A stretch of DNA of 48,230 nt from Klebsiella phage ST11-VIM1phi8.2. The stretch is from the sequence record MK448234.1, one strand, 5' to 3'. Both the position numbers and the translations under genes were made by a program. The first letter of the stretch is position 1. Every line of letters starts with the position of its first letter. Below are positions 3,456 through 25,175 of the stretch, piece after piece. Below the pieces are notes generated by a model. The model was not told the DNA's origin. It made no database searches and was given only the letters and a program-made list of their open reading frames with translations.

Positions 3456-3938
3456 TTAGCTGATATAACGCAGTCCGGGGAATACAGGTAGCGTGTAGCG
3501 GTAACGTGGCCAGGCTGTATCAAGGATATTCATATAACCCGCGGTAATCTGCGCCTCTGTCGCCGTCCAGTAACCAGACTTGATTTTCAGCGTATACGGC
3601 ACTTCCGCAGGGGCCGCTAAATCCGTGGAGATATAACGCCGGTACGTCAGCAATGCAGACAGACGGTTAGCCAGCGCATAGCGGATCGCCGTGGACACAA
3701 CACCATCGATATTGCACAGGGCAAATTTGAGGTCCTGCGTGCCGTCCGCATTGCGCGCCGGCAGAGCAATGTCTATCGCACAGGCGGTAAACGTTACGGT
3801 ATCGCCGTTCTCCGTCGTTGCCGTAATACCCTCGTAGCCCTGGCACAGATAATGGACGTCAGAACCAATGGTGATCTGCAGCGTCTCAATGATCACCTCC
3901 GGCCCGCTGCTGGCGTAGAGGCGGTTGAGTATTGTCAT
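3456..3938 (-). CDS. Minor tail protein (gpL position)
   Basis: 160-aa ORF in the tail-tip gene block between the M-like and K-like genes. No motif recognised. Confidence 0.4.
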   Translation of the reverse strand: MTILNRLYASSGPEVIIETLQITIGSDVHYLCQGYEGITATTENGDTVTFTACAIDIALPARNADGTQDLKFALCNIDGVVSTAIRYALANRLSALLTYRRYISTDLAAPAEVPYTLKIKSGYWTATEAQITAGYMNILDTAWPRYRYTLPVFPGLRYIS

Positions 3939-9324: not shown

Positions 9325-10163
9325 TCAGTTACTTCCTTTCTTATCCGCTGCACGTTTCTGTGCCTCTGCCCACTCAGCCCTCCAGGCATCATCGAGAGCC
9401 AGTATGGCTGCGTCAAACTCAATGCGGTCGATCAGGATGGTGCGCGATGCCAGGTAAAGCTCGATATCGTTCAGGGATAGAGGGAGCGGCACTCCGGCCA
9501 TGCCGGCATACTTCCTGCCGCGCGATATCATGGCGTAAGCGTTGAGGATCTCCCCAGTGACTGCATCGATTTCAGGCTCCTGAATGGGCGGGAGATTTAG
9601 TTTCTCCCTGCGCCACTTTGCTTTCTCGCCCTGCTCGCCGGCGAATTCCTTTAGCCACTTTTGGGCCTCTATGGCTTTTTTACGGTTTCCTGAGTCTGCT
9701 GCTCCTTACCCTGAGCAATATTCGCCGCCTCAGCCAGAATAAGCCAGTACAGAGAGGGGTTTTGCTTCAGTAACGCAACACCACGCTCCGGTGTATACGC
9801 TACCGCCGTCTCCGTACCATCCACCAGCTCCCCCACGCCTTCCCAGTCTTTCAGAAGAAAGCGCGCGCAATTGTCGATGAGAAGATCATCAACCGAGTCA
9901 ATCTCGCCCACACTGGCGAGATCGAAAGCATCCGTACCGACCTGGTAGCTCGCGTCCATTTTGTCGATATGGCGCCGCACCAGCGCATTGCGTGAGCGGT
10001 ATTGTGGATTCTCGCTACTGGCCACCAGCAGACGGAGTTTAAATAGCGCCTCGTCTTCCGGCGTGAATTTCTTTTTACTTCCTGCTGGCTTTTTGTAAGG
10101 GTAAAACCAGCGTTCTCCGTTCAAATCAATTTGAGAAGAAATAATCAGCATAAAGACTCCCAA
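9325..10163 (-). CDS. Tail assembly chaperone GT-like fusion, made by a -1 programmed frameshift at A_AAA_AAG (minus-strand positions 9681..9675)
   Basis: ORF 9325..9531 lies in the -1 frame relative to the G-like ORF and stays open upstream across the G stop. The canonical heptamer A AAA AAG sits 4 nt before the G stop. Confidence 0.55.
9669..10163 (-). CDS. Tail assembly chaperone (gpG-like)
   Basis: 164 aa acidic protein after the major tail gene. Ends ...ETVKKP with GTAAAAAAG at its 3' end. Confidence 0.6.
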   Translation of the reverse strand: MGVFMLIISSQIDLNGERWFYPYKKPAGSKKKFTPEDEALFKLRLLVASSENPQYRSRNALVRRHIDKMDASYQVGTDAFDLASVGEIDSVDDLLIDNCARFLLKDWEGVGELVDGTETAVAYTPERGVALLKQNPSLYWLILAEAANIAQGKEQQTQETVKKP

Positions 10164-10204
10164 AAAAGCCCGTTCCGCGATGACTGCAGAACGGGCCAGG
10201 TAAA

Positions 10205-11377
10205 TTAAGGCGCGGTAACGGTGATTTCAGACGTTGCGGTAAAGGTGCGGGCCTTACCGGTGATGGTTGCAGTACCGGCTGCGTTACGTGTGACTTTCGC
10301 TGTTTTCTGCCCGGTAGAAACCACGCTGGCGATAGTCGGATCCGATGACGTCCACTGGACGGTATCAGTTGAATCAGCTGGCGTAAGCGTGGCGGTTAAC
10401 GTCACAGTAGATCCCACTGCTCCAGTTGAAGTGGCTGGCGCAACACTGATTGCCGTCGCCGGCACTTTGGGAACGCGGGTGATAGTTGGCGGAGTATTGG
10501 CCGCGGTGATATCCAGCTGAACCTGAACAATGTCAGTGCTCCCCGCATCCGGCCAGTCGCCGGAGATCTGCACTTCCGGGAAATCGAAGGTATAGGCGCC
10601 TTCAGCATTCTCCAGCGTGAAGCTAAACGGCACCGTTTCGCCGGTGAACGTTTTTTTGTAAACCTCCCAGGCAGCCTTTGACCATGACAGCGTGATTTGA
10701 CCTGACGGGGTAAAGGTTGTCGGAATGTTTGCGCCGGCGAATGCCGAACCGGTACCAATGCAGCGCTGAGTCTGCATATTGTTGTTGAACTGGATGTTGA
10801 AGGTGTCGACGCAGAAACCTGTCCCGCCATCAACACCATTTAGCCGGATGTTCGTGACCTCTTTAAAGGAGTAACGCAGCGCCCCCGCTAAATCCACCGG
10901 CGCGGTGAAATAGCTGGTATCGTCCCCCTTCGTCTCCCAGTCCAGCCCTGCAAACGTAATGGTTGCAGTGATATCACCATCGGCCGGGATTTCCATCTGG
11001 AAGGTGCCAACCTGGCAACCGCGGGCAATCTGGGCGATCCCCACATCACTGGCAAAAGTCGCCACGGAGAACGTAATGCGACCATTACCCATCGTTAGCA
11101 CGTTATTTAGCCATTCGGAACCGAAGCAGCTGGCAAGAAAATCATCATGCTGGTTCCAGCGAAACCGCGTGCCGACATCGCCGCCGACATCCACTGTGCC
11201 GCGTGAAACACCTTGCGCCATGCGGTCACCAGCGATTTCGTCATTGTCGTTGGTGTTCTGCGTTGGTTTCAGACCAAATGAAGAACGACGCAGCAGGTTC
11301 CACGCCCCTGCTGTAGGCGTGATTCCTGGCGTTGTCTCGCGAATAAACGCGGCTACTACTTTTGCACCTGAGCTCAC
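10205..11377 (-). CDS. Major tail (tube) protein with C-terminal Ig-like (Big_2-type) domain
   Basis: 390 aa. Position like lambda gpV. C-terminal ~90 aa T/S/A-rich Ig-like repeat, as in gpV. Confidence 0.7.
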   Translation of the reverse strand: MSSGAKVVAAFIRETTPGITPTAGAWNLLRRSSFGLKPTQNTNDNDEIAGDRMAQGVSRGTVDVGGDVGTRFRWNQHDDFLASCFGSEWLNNVLTMGNGRITFSVATFASDVGIAQIARGCQVGTFQMEIPADGDITATITFAGLDWETKGDDTSYFTAPVDLAGALRYSFKEVTNIRLNGVDGGTGFCVDTFNIQFNNNMQTQRCIGTGSAFAGANIPTTFTPSGQITLSWSKAAWEVYKKTFTGETVPFSFTLENAEGAYTFDFPEVQISGDWPDAGSTDIVQVQLDITAANTPPTITRVPKVPATAISVAPATSTGAVGSTVTLTATLTPADSTDTVQWTSSDPTIASVVSTGQKTAKVTRNAAGTATITGKARTFTATSEITVTAP

Positions 11378-17333: not shown

Positions 17334-18705
17334 TCAGGTTAGGCGCGCCGTTACGAATAGCGTCAATGACAGTTTCAGGGTCGTCAGCAGGATCTATCAA
17401 GTCAAGCCTCTGCAGAGCTCTGACCATATCCGTGTCGCGAATCGCACCGGACTGCCAGGCATTGACGATTGCCGTTACCATGCCGGATTCAGCGACTTTG
17501 GCGATAAACTCCTGATTGATGCTGTAACGGTATTCCTCGCCTTTTATGCCGAGATATCTGGCGCACCAGCCGAGCGCCAGCGTATAGGCCTCCGAGACAT
17601 TGGAAACGCAAATGCCGAGCACCGATGTGGATGCGGTTTGCTCGCCGCTGGATTGCGTGGCGGTTTTAACCGCGCCGTTCTGCTCGATAAGCCGGGCGCC
17701 AAGCTGAACAGAATAATCACGCTTACTGTCCATCGCCTCTTTAGCCAGGGTGTTTGGTTGCGCCTGAGCATAGGTAAAACTCCCCTCCTTCGGCAGCAGG
17801 AATGGAGAACGAGAACCGACACGAATTCCCTTATCCTGCAGCCAGTCACGCCAGGCGGTATCAAGACCGGAAATCACCGGCTGAACCTGACCGCAGAAAA
17901 ATACGCTGTCTTCGTAATCCGCCGAATTTCGATAATGACCAAGGTTAATTTCAACGAGGGCGGCTAAAGGCGACTCGTCGATGCTGGGATCGTTATTTTG
18001 TGCGCCAACGAAGGTAAAGGGGATCTCATCCCAAAAATCCTCACCTTTAGGCTTCGGGTGATACTCAGAATCGACAGAAAAAGACCCTGCATCGGCCGAC
18101 TTTCGCCACACCCTGCAGATAAACTTGCCATCCTCCAGGGCAAGTTCCCGATACTGGATTTCATCCTTGTACGCAAAACCATCTTCCTTTTCCATGCATT
18201 CGCGTAAAACCACCAGCACCAGTTGATCACGTCCATTGATACGTTTGGTACGCCAGTTAATGATGTTCTCCGCCTGATAGCGAAGGATAATCGCCTCATC
18301 AGTCCCAGCTGCATAATCCGTATACAGCCCCTCGCGCGCGGCTTCCAGAATATTTTCTGTAACCTGCTGGGACTGCTGATAGATACTGGCACCAGCACCA
18401 TCGGCGTTATCACGAAGATAATTCAGCTTATCCGGCGCGGTCATGGTAGGGTCTTTTCGGAATGCCAGCCCCAGCAAACCCACTTTTGTATTGCCCGTTA
18501 TCGCGTAGAAAACGGCGCGCTGAATGTAATCGGCATTGCGCTTTTTATTGCGAGCAGACTTATCGGAGGGATCCAGAAAAGGGAGGTATTCATTCCCGGC
18601 GGCCTTTACAGCATCAGCCCCTTTGCACAAGTCACGAATTTTTTTCCACACGGGCATCGCCGCCCTGACCTCAGGGCGGACGTAAGTAATATCATTATTG
18701 GCCAT
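17305..18705 (-). CDS. Portal protein
   Basis: 466 aa, directly after the large terminase (ATGA overlap at 18705). Confidence 0.7.
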   Translation of the reverse strand: MANNDITYVRPEVRAAMPVWKKIRDLCKGADAVKAAGNEYLPFLDPSDKSARNKKRNADYIQRAVFYAITGNTKVGLLGLAFRKDPTMTAPDKLNYLRDNADGAGASIYQQSQQVTENILEAAREGLYTDYAAGTDEAIILRYQAENIINWRTKRINGRDQLVLVVLRECMEKEDGFAYKDEIQYRELALEDGKFICRVWRKSADAGSFSVDSEYHPKPKGEDFWDEIPFTFVGAQNNDPSIDESPLAALVEINLGHYRNSADYEDSVFFCGQVQPVISGLDTAWRDWLQDKGIRVGSRSPFLLPKEGSFTYAQAQPNTLAKEAMDSKRDYSVQLGARLIEQNGAVKTATQSSGEQTASTSVLGICVSNVSEAYTLALGWCARYLGIKGEEYRYSINQEFIAKVAESGMVTAIVNAWQSGAIRDTDMVRALQRLDLIDPADDPETVIDAIRNGAPNLIGGNNGNGE

Positions 18706-20012
18706 CAGAATGTCGTGTCCAGTGAAATAGAGAATGCAGGTCGAACGATTGGGAATTGCTTCACAATGAAGTAACCAGCGCCATCGTTGGGGTGATCGTT
18801 ATCGCTCTTTTTATCCGGCTCGCCGTTTTTATCCCACACCTGTTGTTCCAGGCAGTCGGCATAGACCGGGCAACGGGCCACATTCACCTTGTACCGGCGA
18901 TCGCCATTACCATTGCAGAACATGGCGTTCATGGAGTTGATGCGGTCCTTTACCGGCGGGTTAGCATCATCAACGATGACGTTAAATCCGGCCTGTCGGA
19001 GCTGCTCAATATCTGTTTTGCTGGCGTTGTTTGATTTCCTGGAGTCACCAGAGGCATCCGGGTAAATATAAATCTCGCGGACCTTACGGTAGTCACCGTC
19101 GGCATACAGCCAGAAACGTTCCTTGATGATGCGTATCATGTCTGGCGTATCGTAAGCGTTGATAATCTCTGTTACCGCGTGTGGTAAGCCGAGCCGCAAT
19201 ACATGGACGATCCCGGCCATCTTCCCGACGTTGAAATCCATCCCGATATACAGCGCTTCACCTGGCTGCTCTTCCTCACTGGAATTATTCAGCACTCTGT
19301 CGAACTGATGATAAATGGTGCCGCTGGTCAGGTTAGTAAACTGGCCGTTCAGATATGCCTTGATCAATTCCGGCGGGTAACTCGCCAGAAGCGAAGGAAT
19401 ATAGTCGTCCGGCAGGTTCTTTTCGTTGTCGAATGTCGAAGCCTGTACCAGACCATACATCGACCTCAGTTCAGGCTTTTCCCTCACAGCCTTAACAAAC
19501 TGGTTATAGACGAACTTAAATCCTTCAGGTGTGGTAGTCACGTCAATGCCATTACGCAGACCATCAACTTTATAACGCATACGCGCGATTATTTTTCGCC
19601 ACGCCTGACGCGCCTTATCCGCTTTCAGAACGTCGAGTTCATCCACCAGCGCATTGCCGATTTTAAAGCCTACTATCGTGTCGGGCTTTTCCATCGACCG
19701 ACAAATTGTCGTGCCGCGGTACTGGCGCCCACTGTAGAAATGGACCTCTTTGTTGCTTTCAACGATTTTGACTTTCAGTCCCCAGTCGTGAGCAACTTCT
19801 TCCACCGTGGGGTAGAAAATATCGCGGATCTGAGGATAAGTCGGGGCAAAGTAGCCTTGGTTTATTTTGGGGAACTCCCAGAACCCTTTGCATATTCCAC
19901 CGCAGCCAACCCATGTCTTACCGGATCCAAAACCAGCTACATAGGCTTTGAACTTCTGCTGCATAGCCAGAAAACGAGCCTGGGGAACGTTAAGCGTCGG
20001 AGCTATCGCCAT
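18705..20012 (-). CDS. Terminase large subunit
   Basis: 435 aa. N-terminal Walker A GFGSGKT. C-terminal nuclease-like acidic residues. Confidence 0.85.
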   Translation of the reverse strand: MAIAPTLNVPQARFLAMQQKFKAYVAGFGSGKTWVGCGGICKGFWEFPKINQGYFAPTYPQIRDIFYPTVEEVAHDWGLKVKIVESNKEVHFYSGRQYRGTTICRSMEKPDTIVGFKIGNALVDELDVLKADKARQAWRKIIARMRYKVDGLRNGIDVTTTPEGFKFVYNQFVKAVREKPELRSMYGLVQASTFDNEKNLPDDYIPSLLASYPPELIKAYLNGQFTNLTSGTIYHQFDRVLNNSSEEEQPGEALYIGMDFNVGKMAGIVHVLRLGLPHAVTEIINAYDTPDMIRIIKERFWLYADGDYRKVREIYIYPDASGDSRKSNNASKTDIEQLRQAGFNVIVDDANPPVKDRINSMNAMFCNGNGDRRYKVNVARCPVYADCLEQQVWDKNGEPDKKSDNDHPNDGAGYFIVKQFPIVRPAFSISLDTTF

Positions 20013-20994
20013 CCTCTTCCCTCACTCGCGCATCGACTACGTTGATATTGATCGCAACTGGCGTTGGTTCGTCATCTTCTGGGTCAGCGGCCAGCTCTTT
20101 ACGGAGCTTGTCGATCTCCAGCTGCCGGCGCTCGATTTCAATCTGCTGTAGACGCTGGGCGAACTCACTGTCAGCCAGGCCGAGACGTTTCATCACCGCC
20201 TCGTACATGCGCTCACGGCTGATGGCGGTTATCTCAACGCCATTCTTACCAAGCTTCACACCGGAATAGGCAAGCGCAGCATCCGGCGCCAGCTTGCGCG
20301 TATCGGCGAAGAAAGGCTGGCCGATGCCATCACCATTACAGCGAGGACATTTCGGGTTAGGCGAGCTGGTATGGTCGTAACCGTAGCCGCCTCTGTCGTT
20401 TGGCTCTTTCCCTTTCTTCGCTAAAGCCTCAGCCAGCTTCTCTTCGAACTCAACCGCATCGCGCCATTGATACTGGTGACCGAAGCCCCAGCAGTAACGG
20501 CAGCTCCCGCGGCGATACTGAGAAAGTTGGTTGGCGTCGAATGTTGCCAGCCGCCACATCTGCTCAAGCACTTCATCAGCGCTGCCAAGCGTGCGCACAA
20601 TGGATGCTTTCTGCTGCTGCGCAATGGCCTGCGCAACTGAAGTTTTCTGAAGCAGCTGATAGCCAATTTGTTCAGCAGTCTTCTTGCTGTACCCGGCACG
20701 GATAGCGGCCTGCGTGGCGTTGTGGTCCTTCAGGTATTCTGCGACAAATAAACGTTGCTGATCGGTGAGGCCATCATCATCCACCAGCTCTTCTGCGCAC
20801 TTTTCCTTTTGCGCAGTGCGCAGTTTCTTCTGCGCAGGTTTTTGCGCAGTTTGCGCAGTGGGTTTCTTGATGTATCGGCGGGCAGTAGCGTAATTCAGTC
20901 CCTGCGCTTCACACCAATCCTTCGGTGATACGCCGGTTGCGGCATGATCGGACAGGAACCGTCGCTGAAGCTCGCCCCAGTCCGGTTTTGCCAT
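19990..20994 (-). CDS. Terminase small subunit
   Basis: 334 aa. N-terminal HTH-like region. Overlaps the large terminase start. Confidence 0.6.
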   Translation of the reverse strand: MAKPDWGELQRRFLSDHAATGVSPKDWCEAQGLNYATARRYIKKPTAQTAQKPAQKKLRTAQKEKCAEELVDDDGLTDQQRLFVAEYLKDHNATQAAIRAGYSKKTAEQIGYQLLQKTSVAQAIAQQQKASIVRTLGSADEVLEQMWRLATFDANQLSQYRRGSCRYCWGFGHQYQWRDAVEFEEKLAEALAKKGKEPNDRGGYGYDHTSSPNPKCPRCNGDGIGQPFFADTRKLAPDAALAYSGVKLGKNGVEITAISRERMYEAVMKRLGLADSEFAQRLQQIEIERRQLEIDKLRKELAADPEDDEPTPVAININVVDARVREEDGDSSDA

Positions 20995-21098
20995 GGATTA
21001 TTCCTATTTAACGTGAGGGAGAAAAAGGAATTACTGATTCTCCATAAAATATTCACTTTTATGTTTTGGAATTAAGGCTCTTTAGTTCAGGAGTTATT

Positions 21099-21227
21099 AT
21101 GAAAAGAATTATGCTTGCTGTTTTTGTGATCTGTGGTGCGCTGTCTCTTTCAGGATGTTTCCTTCCCCCTGGGCCTCATAGCGGCGGACATGGTGGAGAT
21201 CACTTCCATGGTCCAGAGCATCGTTAA
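21099..21227 (+). CDS. Small lipoprotein (43 aa), bor-like position, His/Gly-rich tail
   Basis: MKRIMLAVFVICGALSLSGC... lipobox. Convergent to the late operon. Ends at a bidirectional hairpin. Confidence 0.4.
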   Translation: MKRIMLAVFVICGALSLSGCFLPPGPHSGGHGGDHFHGPEHR

Positions 21228-21249
21228 CCGCCTGAGGACTTTCATTTTA

Positions 21250-21395
21250 CAGAAATGAAAAAGGCCGCAAAATTATGCGGCCTTTGGTCACTACCAACCA
21301 GCGTATAAAGAATCTCTCAGGAGCCAACAGATAGAGGTGCATCTATCCGGCTAACTAACCTCTGGCGTTCTGATGTTGGCAGGCAGAGACGTTAT
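21250..21395 (-). ncRNA. Candidate structured sRNA, copy A1 (~146 nt), ending in a Rho-independent terminator
   Basis: A second copy of the same element lies ~1 kb away (A2). Minus-strand 3' end is GGCCGCAuaauuuuGCGGCC + UUUUUCAUUU. An internal stem shows a compensatory change between copies. Confidence 0.3.
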
Positions 21396-21431
21396 GAGAG
21401 TATTGAGTATTTCAAAATACACCGGGAGAAA

Positions 21432-21458
21432 CAGACAATGATATCAGTCCATTGTCTG
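21432..21458 (-). terminator. Hairpin terminator after small ORF 21543..21734 (9-bp perfect stem CAGACAATG/CATTGTCTG + TTTCT)
   Basis: Seen directly in the sequence. Confidence 0.4.
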
Positions 21459-21542
21459 ACGGGCATTATCACAGGCACTCAATGAATACCTGCTGTAATG
21501 CGGTCAGATACCAGTTTATAACCTGACCAAATGTTACTTAGA

Positions 21543-21734
21543 TCACAATCCATAGAACCACCCACCAATGCCAAAGGCTGCAGCGATCACCAGACAAGCA
21601 ATTGCCGTTTTAGGCATTAACACACCGTAAAATGCAGGAGACAATCCCAGGAATAAAACCATTAGCACTGGCCACATACTAAGCAACAGGAAAAAGTAGC
21701 CATTTATACCACCGCTGCTAAACGTCACATTCAC
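21543..21734 (-). CDS. Small membrane protein (63 aa, 2 TM)
   Basis: Hydrophobic ORF with an SD (GGAG) upstream. Followed by the 40-bp B repeat. Confidence 0.35.
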   Translation of the reverse strand: MNVTFSSGGINGYFFLLLSMWPVLMVLFLGLSPAFYGVLMPKTAIACLVIAAAFGIGGWFYGL

Positions 21735-21856
21735 TCCAAACCATTACCCGGACTTTCCATAGCTTGGTTGCTTCGTTGCATGATATCATACAACTGCCCC
21801 TTATACAGGAGCTTTAACATTATCACAGGCACTCGATGAATGCCTGCTGTAATGCC

Positions 21857-22102
21857 TTAGCTGACTTTCTCAGCGGCAGTATCAAACAGCGCCAGCGCTT
21901 CGGTCGCTTCCTGGATTGCCTTACGGGTCTTCGAGACAATCTCACTTTCCGTGAAAACACGATCGAAAGAGTCAGCGAATAGCTCAGACTTCAGATAGCT
22001 GTCGCCTACCCAGTCAATGGCCAGCTTGGCCGCTGCGGTGTCATAATTAACTTTCTTGATTATATCCAGGCGGATTTGCTCGGATGCAGTGATCTCTGAC
22101 AT
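21857..22102 (-). CDS. Hypothetical helical protein (81 aa)
   Basis: ORF followed immediately by the 40-bp B repeat. Confidence 0.4.
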   Translation of the reverse strand: MSEITASEQIRLDIIKKVNYDTAAAKLAIDWVGDSYLKSELFADSFDRVFTESEIVSKTRKAIQEATEALALFDTAAEKVS

Positions 22103-22225
22103 GTCTTACCTCTGTGCGATGTGGGGAGTATTATCGAAGCCATTCGACAAAATAGCCTCTGTGATGCTTTTGCATTTATCTTTGCCGTGTGTACAAGCTG
22201 AACGGTTTCCTTACGGATGCCTGTT

Positions 22226-22380
22226 ACGCACAATAAAAAAGGTCGCATAAAAAATGCGACCTTTGGTTGGTACCAGTTAGAAAACTAAAATCTCTCAGGA
22301 GCCACCCGGGAGAGGCTTTTCTGCTTTTTAACTGACCACTGCCGTTTTGGTGTTGGCTGGCAGTGATAACGTGGTGATAG
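22226..22380 (-). ncRNA. Candidate structured sRNA, copy A2 (~155 nt), ending in a Rho-independent terminator
   Basis: Minus-strand 3' end is GGUCGCAUuuuuuAUGCGACC + UUUUUUAUUG. The body is homologous to A1, including GGCUCCUGAGAGAUU. Confidence 0.3.
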
Positions 22381-22536
22381 CTTCATTTAAGTTATCGAAA
22401 GCATTTAAATATCGAAAGAGCTCATTGAACCAATCATTTTCAACTTGCCGGAACATTCAACCAGAGCACCAGGCATCTCTGCTGGTCTTTTGATGGCAAT
22501 TCTCAGCTCTCCCGAACGAGGCCGGTAACTAACAAT

Positions 22537-22785
22537 TTATTCGACAGTTCCTTCGGCATTAACCCAAAGATCTAGATGCTTGATGTAGCGTTGGATGGGC
22601 ACATAAATAACCACCCCATCTACAAGGTTAACGGACTTGATAACATATCCCTGCGGAGCTAAATAATCCCCATCACAATGAGGGTGAATAGAGTGCTCGT
22701 CACCGTATCGATAACCATGCGGAAGTTGAGGGAGTGAATTTCTTGTCATGGGCAGCTTCTTAGATAGAAGGAATTGAAAATCCAT
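22537..22785 (-). CDS. Hypothetical protein
   Basis: 82-aa ORF (a likely start is the Met at 22749) in the AT-rich region downstream of the spanins. Confidence 0.3.
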   Translation of the reverse strand: MDFQFLLSKKLPMTRNSLPQLPHGYRYGDEHSIHPHCDGDYLAPQGYVIKSVNLVDGVVIYVPIQRYIKHLDLWVNAEGTVE

Positions 22786-23336: not shown

Positions 23337-23677
23337 TGCTGCTCCTTCAGTTCGTCGGCCTTTTCTTTCAATGCTGGCTGGCGTACGTATTGCGATAGTA
23401 CGGCCAGCACCACCAGCGCAGGGCTAATCAACGCAACGATGTTTGGCGGCAGGATGTTTTTGATATCCGGCGGCAGCACCGCCCAGGCGTGCAGCGCAGC
23501 ATCCGGGAACGACTGCGCCCATACACCAACCAGCGCGCCGATAGCTCCCAGCTTTACAGACCACGTTTTCAGCAGCAAGCTGGCATGCCCTACGAACTCC
23601 AGCCGGGTATATTTGCGCAGAAGTAACAGAACGAGCACAGCCACCAGCACAAGCAAAGCGAAAATGATCATCTTCAC
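23333..23677 (-). CDS. Multi-TM membrane protein in the lysis cassette (LysA-like / lysis accessory)
   Basis: 114 aa with 3 hydrophobic segments. Between the endolysin and the spanins. Confidence 0.4.
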   Translation of the reverse strand: MKMIIFALLVLVAVLVLLLLRKYTRLEFVGHASLLLKTWSVKLGAIGALVGVWAQSFPDAALHAWAVLPPDIKNILPPNIVALISPALVVLAVLSQYVRQPALKEKADELKEQQ

Positions 23678-24213
23678 AGGACACGCTCCTTAACCCAGCC
23701 GTAGAGAAAATCCTCGTTGGCTTCGCGGCCCTCCGCCAGTTCGAGGTATCTGGCACCCTGGCTGCAGTTCAGCGCACGCACCAGAACCTGTTCACCCTCT
23801 TTCCCGCGGGCGGAAAGGTATCCCTTAAGCGCGGTGATGGTTCGGGGACCAATGGCGCCATCCGGAATCAGATCGGGATACAGCTTTCCGCGCATATTCA
23901 TTGCGGTCAGCCAGCGCTGGAAAAACTTACTGGCTACAGATGGCCCCATGTTCACGCCAGTGTCGCAAAGCTCATCTGCCAGTAACGTAGATAGAGCTGC
24001 CACCTGGTCAAACCGGGGGCCGGTCCAGTAATCGCTCAGCAGGATTTGCTTTGCTGTTTCCCTGGGCAGGTTCCGCATATCACCGGTGTAGCCATGTGCA
24101 CGGGCGGTGGTCTGCGTGATGCCCCAGCGGGTCGGCCCGCCTTTATCCGACGGATGATCGACATAACCATCCTCCTTGCCGAGGATCCCCTCGATAATCT
24201 GGTCTGCTGTCAT
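23674..24213 (-). CDS. Endolysin: glycoside hydrolase family 108 N-domain plus peptidoglycan-binding domain
   Basis: Motif GYVDHPSDKGGPTRWGIT, the GH108 signature. 179 aa. Confidence 0.8.
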   Translation of the reverse strand: MTADQIIEGILGKEDGYVDHPSDKGGPTRWGITQTTARAHGYTGDMRNLPRETAKQILLSDYWTGPRFDQVAALSTLLADELCDTGVNMGPSVASKFFQRWLTAMNMRGKLYPDLIPDGAIGPRTITALKGYLSARGKEGEQVLVRALNCSQGARYLELAEGREANEDFLYGWVKERVL

Positions 24214-24521
24214 TGTGCTTTCACTCCGGTGATTCGTTCCCAGAAATACGTGAGCGCTACGGAGCCCATCGCGCCGCTTATCCCCGCGGTTGCCAGAATC
24301 ATGTAAATGCTCAGTCCGCTTTCAATGCTCACCAGGCCAGCAATAACGCCGGTAAACCCTGAAACCACCATTTGGGCAAGAGCATTGATCAAGCTCCATG
24401 TTGCCTTGCTCTGCTTCACATCTATCAGGTAGCGGACAAGTCCACCCCAGCAAGCAATGATCAGCAGAACCAGCCAGGACATCCCGGCAATGCTCTCTTT
24501 GTCTTGCATACGCTTAGCCAT
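24210..24521 (-). CDS. Holin
   Basis: 103 aa with 2-3 TM segments, immediately upstream of the endolysin. Confidence 0.65.
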   Translation of the reverse strand: MAKRMQDKESIAGMSWLVLLIIACWGGLVRYLIDVKQSKATWSLINALAQMVVSGFTGVIAGLVSIESGLSIYMILATAGISGAMGSVALTYFWERITGVKAQ

Positions 24522-24760: not shown

Positions 24761-24820
24761 CCTGCATGAAACCATGCGGGCTTTTTTTTGCCCAAAGAAA
24801 AAGCCCACCGAAGTGGGCCT
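24761..24820. terminator. Back-to-back terminators. The plus-strand one is CCTGCATG..CATGCGGG + T8. The minus-strand one is GGCCCAC-uucg-GUGGGC + UUUUUCUUU (tR'-like).
   Basis: Seen in the sequence. Lies between the pR'-like promoter and the holin. Confidence 0.5.
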
Positions 24821-25146
24821 TACAGCTATCATCATTTTTTATTAGGTGTGGTGCCGGGTGCCTCCCGGTAAGTCGCCGCCAGTCCACAGACGACTCGCAA
24901 TGCGCAAAAAAACATATCAGACTGGCAATGCCCCTCCGCATAGGGGGATTCACCACACCAAAAATTTAACATCTGATGAAACTCGTTTCAATGCTCTACG
25001 ACGATGTGACAGGGGTACTGATGCAATGCATCTCGCGAATACCCCTGTCGTGTCGCCGGAAAGCAAAAAGCCCAAGGCGTTAACCTCGGGCTTGAATTCT
25101 TTGTGTCGACAATCGAAGCTATGGCGACGATATCAGATTTACATGA

Positions 25147-25175
25147 AATATATGCCTTTCAGTTCGGTTTTGCAA
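25147..25175 (-). promoter_or_regulatory. Late promoter pR'-like (TTGCAA-17 nt-TATATT) overlapping the 3' end of Q
   Basis: -35 at 25175..25170 and -10 at 25152..25147 on the minus strand, with a 17-nt spacer. Position analogous to lambda pR'. Confidence 0.5.

Follow-up and report, generated by a model that had tools for sequence, protein, structure and literature searches.

The 48,230-nucleotide stretch of DNA analyzed here (hereafter the window; sequence record MK448234.1 of Klebsiella phage ST11-VIM1phi8.2) is a Klebsiella lambdoid prophage that carries, on its minus strand, two related copies of an element composed of a body followed by an intrinsic terminator: A1, at positions 21242–21411, and A2, at positions 22219–22388. 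These copies are members of an element family that is real, previously undescribed in the literature searched, and without an Rfam model. On balance, we lean toward the view that A1 and A2 represent an undescribed family of non-coding, structured, terminator-ended RNAs that acts as a regulatory small RNA through the mechanism proposed below, with action in trans being plausible (about one in three).

Two related terminator-ended elements in a Klebsiella prophage

An original prediction, derived from the letters of the window, described two direct repeats that each end in a strong Rho-independent terminator as candidate prophage small RNAs (sRNAs). Both repeats were recovered here: ~150 nt could be aligned on the minus strand along their whole length, and A1 showed 70.9% identity across 136 nt with an A2-type copy (BLAST). 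A covariance model built from relatives matched A2 over the full model with 166 bits (E ~1e-40) and A1, which is a divergent variant, with 158 bits (E ~1e-38), while the next full-length match in the 48-kb window reached 13 bits, so that the repeat is far beyond chance. No third copy was found in the window with this model when filters were turned off; the model also matched the opposite strand at the A1 terminator.

The terminators were both called, on the minus strand, by a terminator scan. For A1, the terminator spans 21252–21285 (inverted repeat I3) and is followed by UUUUUCAUUU; its stem (21285–21260) includes 10 bp, six of these G-C, with the tail TTTTTCATTT. The A2 terminator spans 22232–22264 and is followed by UUUUUUAUU, with an 11-bp stem at 22264–22238 and the tail TTTTTTATTG. 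The A1 stem is palindromic and also faces a lipoprotein-like open reading frame (ORF) that converges on it from the plus strand. Among the blocks that had been listed as conserved between copies, GGCTCCTGAGAGATT was exact in both A1 and A2, but the first block, which reads GCCTGCCAACATCAGAACG in A1 and GCCAGCCAACACCAAAACG in A2, included one more difference than its proposed consensus allowed.

When other genomes were searched, A1 and A2 were found to belong to a family of 171 copies across 151 fetched loci, gathered by pattern scans of viral contigs and from annotated phage, plasmid, and Escherichia coli records. Elements are ~145–190 nt long across this family and fall into about five sequence types, ~30% divergent from one another: A1, A1', A2 (including a variant from locus L008), a Salmonella SEN34-like type, and type E, found for instance in K. 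oxytoca.

A conserved RNA fold presenting a near-invariant box

We next derived a consensus fold with RNAalifold from a 30-sequence alignment (A3); a trimmed alignment (A4) was left unused because P1 of the SEN34 types was misaligned in it. The consensus comprises 31 pairs arranged as a hairpin (P1), a longer helix (P3) enclosing a shorter one (P2), and the terminator. P1 is a hairpin of 6–7 bp with a conserved ..CCAAYACCA.. loop, P3 is formed by CAGUUA.. and ..UAACUG, and the enclosed P2 (CUCUC/GAGAG) presents the 12-nt box GGCUCCUGAGAG. Overall, 97.4% of the cells in this alignment were paired, versus 37–47% when the 3' partners were slid by 1–3 columns, and the observed covariation score was reached by 0 of 500 shuffles. 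Six pairs change on both sides, including U-A/A-U and U-A/C-G in P1 and C-G/A-U and G-C/A-U/G-U in P3, with A3 column pairs 27–55 and 29–53 (P1) covarying. The compensatory change already noticed between the two copies of the window (CTCTG/CAGAG versus CACTG/CAGTG) was confirmed, and the same covariation recurs across the family. The ratio of G-U pairs to A-C mismatches was 59:4, which points to selection on the RNA of the late-sense strand. Taken together, these comparisons indicate an RNA-level structure of the minus strand.

Taken one at a time, A2, A1', and E sequences also fold into the consensus, with 28–29 of the 31 pairs present in the minimum-free-energy fold and helix probabilities of 0.7–1.0, and the folding of type E reached z = −7.3 relative to shuffles. 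The window A2 formed 28 of the 31 consensus pairs in its minimum-free-energy fold, with probabilities of 1.00 for P1, 0.97 for P3, and 0.55 for P2: its P1 (22337–22365, minus strand) consists of CACUGCC, a 15-nt loop (AGCCAACACCAAAAC), and GGCAGUG, and its long hairpin of P3 (CAGUUA/UAACUG) around P2 (CUCUC/GAGAG) spans 22274–22334 on the same strand. For the window A1, in contrast, the predicted probability of P1, P3, and P2 was ~0, the terminator alone being predicted to form. The A1 counterpart of P1 (21360–21388, minus strand) reads CUCUGCC ... GCCAGAG, and the A1 type and its derived chimeras share this P1 with one C-C mismatch, a mostly G-U P3, and a private hairpin (GGAUAGA...UCUAUCU). 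Hence A2 is the canonical copy in the window, and A1 the divergent one.

The box is near-invariant and kept in all family types, and matches exactly on the minus strand in both A1 (21314–21325) and A2 (22292–22303). Since the initial scans had required the box, its conservation was re-tested using a pattern of the P1 loop and terminator only: every true element recovered had GGCTCCTGAGAG, except for three copies with one substitution each, which means that the conservation of the box is real. The box, shared between the loop and the 3' strand of P2, includes CUCCU, the complement of the Shine-Dalgarno core. Within the window, sequences complementary to the box or to the P1 loop occurred at chance level only. 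A duplex-energy ranking of 785 start regions in the window was topped by the antisense strand of the element itself or by an unremarkable 8-mer, and the ribosome-binding site of the lipoprotein-like ORF paired with the box at an energy only ~1.5 standard deviations below the mean.

The elements do not encode a conserved protein

Given that the repeats could instead have been parts of a duplicated coding segment with only the terminators conserved, we evaluated both where conservation lies and whether any reading frame is maintained. Conservation was found to peak in the P1 loop and the 12-nt box, so that this scenario does not apply. A three-frame translation of 11 representatives revealed no frame that remains open and retains a start codon across all types: the frame open in E and SEN34 contains a stop and no start codon in A1 and A1', that of A2 is shifted by a 1-nt deletion, and the L008 variant has a stop three codons into the frame of a 42-amino acid (aa) ORF. 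This ORF (“BN426_1862”; 22328–22456, minus strand) overlaps the 5' part of A2 and is annotated in several deposited Klebsiella phage genomes, yet probably represents an annotation artefact. No Shine-Dalgarno sequence was detected before candidate starts, and neither the 42-aa ORF nor the in-element ORFs matched a Pfam, PHROG, or NCBIfam family, whereas neighboring 82-aa, DUF2560, and 63-aa ORFs did. The lack of both a conserved frame and a protein family led us to consider the repeats as non-coding.

The element being a small protein gene, or the remnant of one, is thus highly improbable. This reading would draw on the annotation of the 42-aa ORF in phage records and on the E, SEN34, and A2 types each including a 33–34-aa ORF that has a start codon and ends in or just after the box (in-element ORFs being 31–34 aa long overall). 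However, the frames differ by type, compensatory changes occur in P1, and no start-bearing frame is conserved across homologues.

Just upstream of A2, and within the doubtful 42-aa ORF, we also observed two tandem direct repeats of 17–18 nt (CTTTCGATATTTAAATG and CTTTCGATAACTTAAATG; 22418–22384, minus strand). These could constitute a protein-binding site.

A narrow family at a fixed position in the late operon

We then examined how widely the element is distributed. It was identified mainly in Klebsiella prophages and in some from Salmonella: only 5 of 50,697 phage records and 1 of 5426 complete E. coli genomes contain it, as does a single one of 185,579 species-representative genomes (K. oxytoca, in an exact-pattern scan). 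Among plasmids, BLAST detected it in 15 of 72,556 records, and the three examined corresponded to prophages or prophage remnants, of types already known here. When 155 loci were searched with the model to uncover more divergent types, only known ones were returned, plus one copy split by an insertion sequence (IS). Within the genomes scanned, the family is therefore narrow, and its members sit in the accessory (“moron”) region of lambdoid prophages, chiefly of Klebsiella and Salmonella.

On the K. pneumoniae IncF plasmid NZ_CP015754.1 (locus L210, 3024–4143), a prophage remnant is made up of spanin-like ORFs and a degraded A2-like element, which reaches 129 bits and has several disrupted pairs. 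The plasmid is conjugative, and the remnant is flanked by a YcaO/ABC/pentapeptide-repeat cluster on one side and repA on the other.

The element did not correspond to any known RNA family at the Rfam gathering threshold. Across the whole window, Rfam 15 matched only STnc100 and isrJ, both outside A1 and A2. At E ≤ 10, the best match in the element region was Trp_leader, with 23 bits against a cut-off of 41 and covering the terminator part only, and the element was also unmatched by Rfam in seven related loci. Literature searches with the exact string of the box returned only unrelated eukaryotic primers, and the text that could be searched from the Klebsiella RNA-interactome and Pas-sRNA literature dealt with other loci, and the interactome text mentioned no prophage RNA of the present kind.

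The location of the repeats in the accessory region between lysis genes and terminase, as originally proposed, was borne out by the gene maps of the window and its relatives. In every locus with recognizable flanking genes, the element was found after the lysis genes and before the small terminase subunit gene (terS), in late-gene orientation. This was the case next to Terminase_2/Terminase_6, P27-family/HNH, and other terminases alike, at varying distance from the terminase. Since the position is constant despite three terminase types, the tie is to the end of the lysis/accessory region rather than to packaging. A pac or cos site was rejected on the same grounds of several terminase types and variable distance, along with the 59:4 bias toward G-U pairs indicating RNA.

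This position also bears on whether the element could be a riboswitch-type leader or attenuator controlling the terminase genes downstream. The resemblance to an aptamer with an expression platform is there, as a structured domain with invariant unpaired bases is directly followed by a terminator, and no other late-strand feature separates A1-type and SEN34-type copies from terS. However, the downstream gene is not constant: it can be the opposite-strand lipoprotein-like ORF followed by terS, a DUF2560 gene, a 212-aa ORF, or an HNH gene. Moreover, inspection of A3 revealed no conserved antiterminator alternative, and late transcription is antiterminated by Q anyway, with both a Q gene and PR'-type leader RNAs present. 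We discarded this reading, which we regard as very unlikely, based on the varied downstream neighbors and the lack of a conserved antiterminator.

Probable differences in the transcription of A1 and A2

Upstream of P1, all types but A2 have ~100 nt more in common. The best conserved block in this region, rACTGn-yAnnnT (i.e., a −10-like hexamer preceded by a TGn extended −10), is located ~55 nt before P1 and is visible in alignment A5; it was present upstream of 74 of the 82 non-A2 copies but none of the 88 A2 copies. In A1, this putative promoter block covers 21438–21446 on the minus strand (TG at 21446–21445, TATCAT at 21443–21438) and sits inside a hairpin at 21432–21458. The latter had been presented as a separate terminator suggesting that A1 is an independent transcription unit, an argument that does not hold as stated: this hairpin is A/U-rich, with a 9-bp stem, a 9-nt loop, and no T-run, it was not called by the terminator scan, and it overlaps the conserved promoter-like block. 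If that block is a promoter, the A1-type RNA would start near 21431 and be ~180 nt long.

Modes of expression probably differ among types. In locus L128, a type E copy lies between two opposite-strand ORFs, hence is not the 3' untranslated region (3'UTR) of a neighboring gene, which favors self-transcription of type E. Overall, based on the conserved upstream block, A1, A1', E, and SEN34 copies are probably self-transcribed. Conversely, no promoter-like block precedes the window A2, and an 82-aa ORF of unknown function (22537–22785, minus strand; PHROG 7679, 1e-43) ends 150 nt upstream of it, an ORF found directly upstream of A2-type copies wherever flanks are readable. A2 thus resembles a 3'UTR more than a gene of its own, and from this gene order A2 is best read as the 3'UTR of the 82-aa gene.

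A second −10-like motif, C-T-A-n-n-n-T, occurs 7–10 nt ahead of P1 in all types. In A3 (columns 9–15), T10 and A11 are invariant and C9 and T15 are conserved at ≥90%. A1 carries it as TACTCT (21397–21402, minus strand), 8 nt 5' of P1, and the A2 counterpart is TATCAC (~22374–22379, minus strand), in which the final T is absent. A sigma-S-like reading of this motif was considered weak: 18 A2 copies, including that of the window, have a C in place of the final T, and for this reason the motif was given little weight.

Exchange and loss of cargo between copies

Twenty loci harbored two copies, and in all of these the copies were direct repeats with an A2-type copy upstream. For 18 of them, the spacing was 978 nt and the cargo (i.e., the genes between copies) was the same as in the window, where it includes an 81-aa DUF2560 protein (21857–22102, minus strand; Pfam PF10834, 1e-19; PHROG 571) and a 63-aa hydrophobic protein (21543–21734, minus strand; PHROG 36556, 7e-37). 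In L128, A2 is instead paired with the type E copy 1301 nt away, with a different cargo in between. Locus L177 has the cargo of the window, but its A1 copy is split in the variable hairpin by an IS (10056–11291, encoding a 322-aa transposase on the opposite strand at 10182–11150), indicating that the element is dispensable for prophage carriage. The number of copies per locus never exceeded two, and many A2 copies were followed by cargo without a second copy.

Chimeric copies were also identified. Klebsiella phage ST16-OXA48phi5.1 and seven other loci have a single copy that joins an A2 5' half to an A1 3' half, without cargo, and in L149 an A2 5' half is joined to an A1' 3' half within 27 shared nt around the box. 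These single chimeric copies without cargo show that exchange within the element removes or swaps the cargo. At the A2/A1 junction of the phi5.1 type, only 6 bases are shared (CCTCTC).

Such exchange raises the question of whether the element is solely a DNA-level recombination linker whose RNA fold is incidental. Beyond the chimeras and the loss of cargo between copies, the direct orientation of copies in 20 of 20 two-copy loci and the mosaic mixing of 5' and 3' halves among types would fit with this reading. Nevertheless, we consider it quite unlikely: pairing has been kept despite ~30% divergence through compensatory and G-U changes of one strand (59:4), the orientation is fixed relative to transcription, and identity between A2 and A1 at the phi5.1 junction is limited to 6 nt (CCTCTC). 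A further idea is that of a portable “cassette-end” module with which phages would shuffle accessory genes, a phage counterpart of integron attC sites in which the folded RNA or single-stranded DNA would be the actual exchange site while also terminating transcription. It was suggested by copies bracketing different cargos, the 6-nt chimera junctions (CCTCTC), and the near-invariant 12-nt core, and we deem it highly doubtful. An integron attC-type cassette site as such was rejected: loci had at most two copies, the upstream copy always had an A2 5' half, and many A2 copies had cargo after them but no partner copy.

Proposed function of the elements

The mechanism we propose for a regulatory small RNA distinguishes lysogeny from lytic growth. 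In a lysogen, polymerase unmodified by Q, originating from accessory-gene promoters or from the promoter of the element itself, would stop at the element terminator. Termination would insulate the packaging and head genes, as well as the convergent lipoprotein-like ORF (21096–21227), from read-through, and would leave a stable, structured 3'-terminal RNA, produced for the A1 type from its own promoter and for A2 as the 3'UTR of the 82-aa gene. During lytic growth, Q-modified polymerase would pass through the element. In the RNA, a partner RNA or protein would most likely be contacted through the conserved single-stranded P1 loop and the box; a regulatory small RNA is favored here on the grounds that the conservation of these two segments suggests a specific partner. 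At the DNA level, the copies may in addition provide portable homology for the loss or exchange of cargo genes.

The serious alternative is a purely cis-acting role, in which the element would be a 3'UTR and terminator that stabilizes accessory mRNAs and blocks read-through into the packaging and lipoprotein genes, and to this reading we assign a real but minor share of the probability. Both terminators are strong, and that of A1 is palindromic and shared with the convergent ORF; A2 has no promoter-like block and lies behind an ORF; and a cis role would also be consistent with the lack of targets in the window and with a family that is narrow and dispensable. However, termination by itself does not require the 100 nt of structure upstream, nor its near-invariant 12-nt box and conserved loop. 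Furthermore, some copies have no same-strand gene ahead of them (as in L128), and non-A2 types include the promoter-like block.

Several observations weigh against a regulatory small RNA. First, the covariation comes from about five types only, i.e., ~5–6 independent compensatory events, and as such is moderate evidence, not proof. Second, the predicted folds of the window A1 type and of several SEN34-type copies depart from the consensus, and mosaic recombinants show mismatches, with an A-A in the L008 type and others in P3 of L003 and L124. Third, a consensus scan of the minus strand returned no sigma-70 promoter for the elements, and the putative extended −10 is read from conservation alone. 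Fourth, the U-tails are short for a classic Hfq module, for which ~6–7 U or more would be expected: A2 has 6 U followed by AUU, and A1 5 U followed by CAUUU. Finally, no target in the window scores above chance, and the IS-split A1 copy shows that one prophage at least is carried without an intact element of this type. The sRNA interpretation of the original prediction is accordingly supported in part: the non-coding nature, minus-strand RNA structure, terminators, and location all stand, but the A1 body is predicted to depart from the family fold, and the argument from a separate terminator fails.

Should the elements be expressed, they would represent a Klebsiella/Salmonella prophage RNA family, present in prophages from carbapenem-resistant clones of K. 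pneumoniae (ST974, ST846, and ST16 OXA-48 strains), and would add a lysogenic-conversion regulator in Klebsiella, in which, to our knowledge, prophage small RNAs are essentially unexplored. The two paralogs would also form a natural pair, alike in their conserved loop and box yet wired differently (own promoter versus 3'UTR). If no discrete RNA is made, the element remains a well-defined, if ordinary, terminator and boundary module. For the annotation of mosaic prophages, it illustrates that what is conserved where accessory genes meet can be a structured 3' element rather than a gene.

Gene context of the window

The region of the window around the elements (21000–22600) is 99.2% identical to Klebsiella phage ST974-OXA48phi18.2. 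Late genes are located on the minus strand, in the order Q-type antiterminator, PR'-like region, holin, lysozyme, and spanin-like ORFs, small ORFs, terS, and the large terminase subunit gene (terL). Directly after the Q-type gene, a good match to a sigma-70 promoter (TTGCAA at 25175–25170, a 17-nt spacer, and TATATT at 25152–25147) precedes two Rfam-matched RNAs, each with its own terminator: an isrJ-like RNA (25143–25067; 63 bits) and an STnc100-like RNA (24985–24790; 104 bits). This combination of a promoter, stacked leader RNAs, and terminators at 25175–24790 looks like the late promoter PR' region. A third terminator-like hairpin was observed at ~24655–24630, ahead of the holin gene. The holin (24210–24521) and lysozyme (23674–24213) genes and those of the terminase subunits (terS, Terminase_2, 19990–20994; terL, Terminase_6, 18705–20012) all lie on the minus strand.

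The plus-strand ORF converging on the A1 terminator (21096–21227, from the ORF list) would encode 43 aa (MKRIMLAVFVICGALSLSGC...), in which a classic lipoprotein signal with its lipobox is combined with a mature part rich in His and Gly. This ORF matched no Pfam, PHROG, or NCBIfam family, adjoins A1 and A1' copies in most loci, and was left unannotated by the Prokaryotic Genome Annotation Pipeline (PGAP) in an E. coli relative (L209).

A 38-nt imperfect hairpin (GCATTACAGCAGGYATTCAT.GAGTGCCTGTGATAATG) without a T-run is repeated at 21464–21501 and 21818–21855, with copies 95% identical, one after the DUF2560 ORF and the other after the 63-aa ORF; a similar TTACAGAAGGCATTCAT hairpin was found upstream of the type E element in L126 (~3830–3850). 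No tRNA or tmRNA was detected by ARAGORN in the whole window. In ST974-OXA48phi18.2, a tRNA-Thr (TGT) lies between Q and the lysis genes (10800–10875 of locus L001; cf. window ~25800), which indicates that this module differs between the two phages.

Comparison with known systems

Among known prophage RNAs, the closest parallels are the anti-sRNAs AsxR and AgvB, found at moron sites of lambdoid prophages in enterohemorrhagic E. coli (PMC4104026), and the Pas sRNAs and STnc100 (bioRxiv 10.64898/2026.05.13.724894). Like the element described here, these are non-coding and terminator-ended, reside in lambdoid accessory regions as non-identical related copies at conserved positions, are sometimes arranged convergently, and spread by recombination. 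However, they are located just downstream of PR' and Q, before the lysis genes, whereas the element follows the lysis genes. They are also found mostly in E. coli and Shigella, measure 51–200 nt, and have Rfam models, whereas the element was detected in 1 of 5426 E. coli genomes, matches none of these models, and is known from sequence only.

For A2, the relevant comparison is with IpeX of the cryptic prophage DLP12, a 167-nt RNA that is part of an accessory-gene (porin) transcript and is released by processing (PMC12197685). Derivation from an accessory-gene transcript is the route proposed here for the 3'UTR-borne A2, yet IpeX has no sequence or model similarity to the element and, unlike it, is experimentally supported. 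The positions differ as well: nmpC and ipeX come after Q but before the lysis genes, whereas the element follows the lysis genes and precedes the terminase.

A parallel can also be drawn with the lambda PR'-tR' 6S-type leaders, represented in the window by the isrJ-like and STnc100 RNAs. Leaders and element alike are short, terminator-ended, late-strand RNAs that would be read through by Q-modified polymerase. The leaders, at 24790–25143, come directly after a good sigma-70 promoter and match Rfam, whereas A1 and A2 lie 2.5–4 kb further downstream and have no match.

Finally, morons have been described as units of a promoter, a gene, and a terminator (Juhala et al. 2000, as cited in PMC4104026; PMC3594210). 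The element qualifies as the terminator of such a unit, in that it supplies a factor-independent terminator closing accessory units within the late operon, with cargo that varies between similar phages. We know of no moron terminator with a conserved 100-nt structured body common to unrelated cargos. Here, it is the boundary element that is conserved, not the gene.

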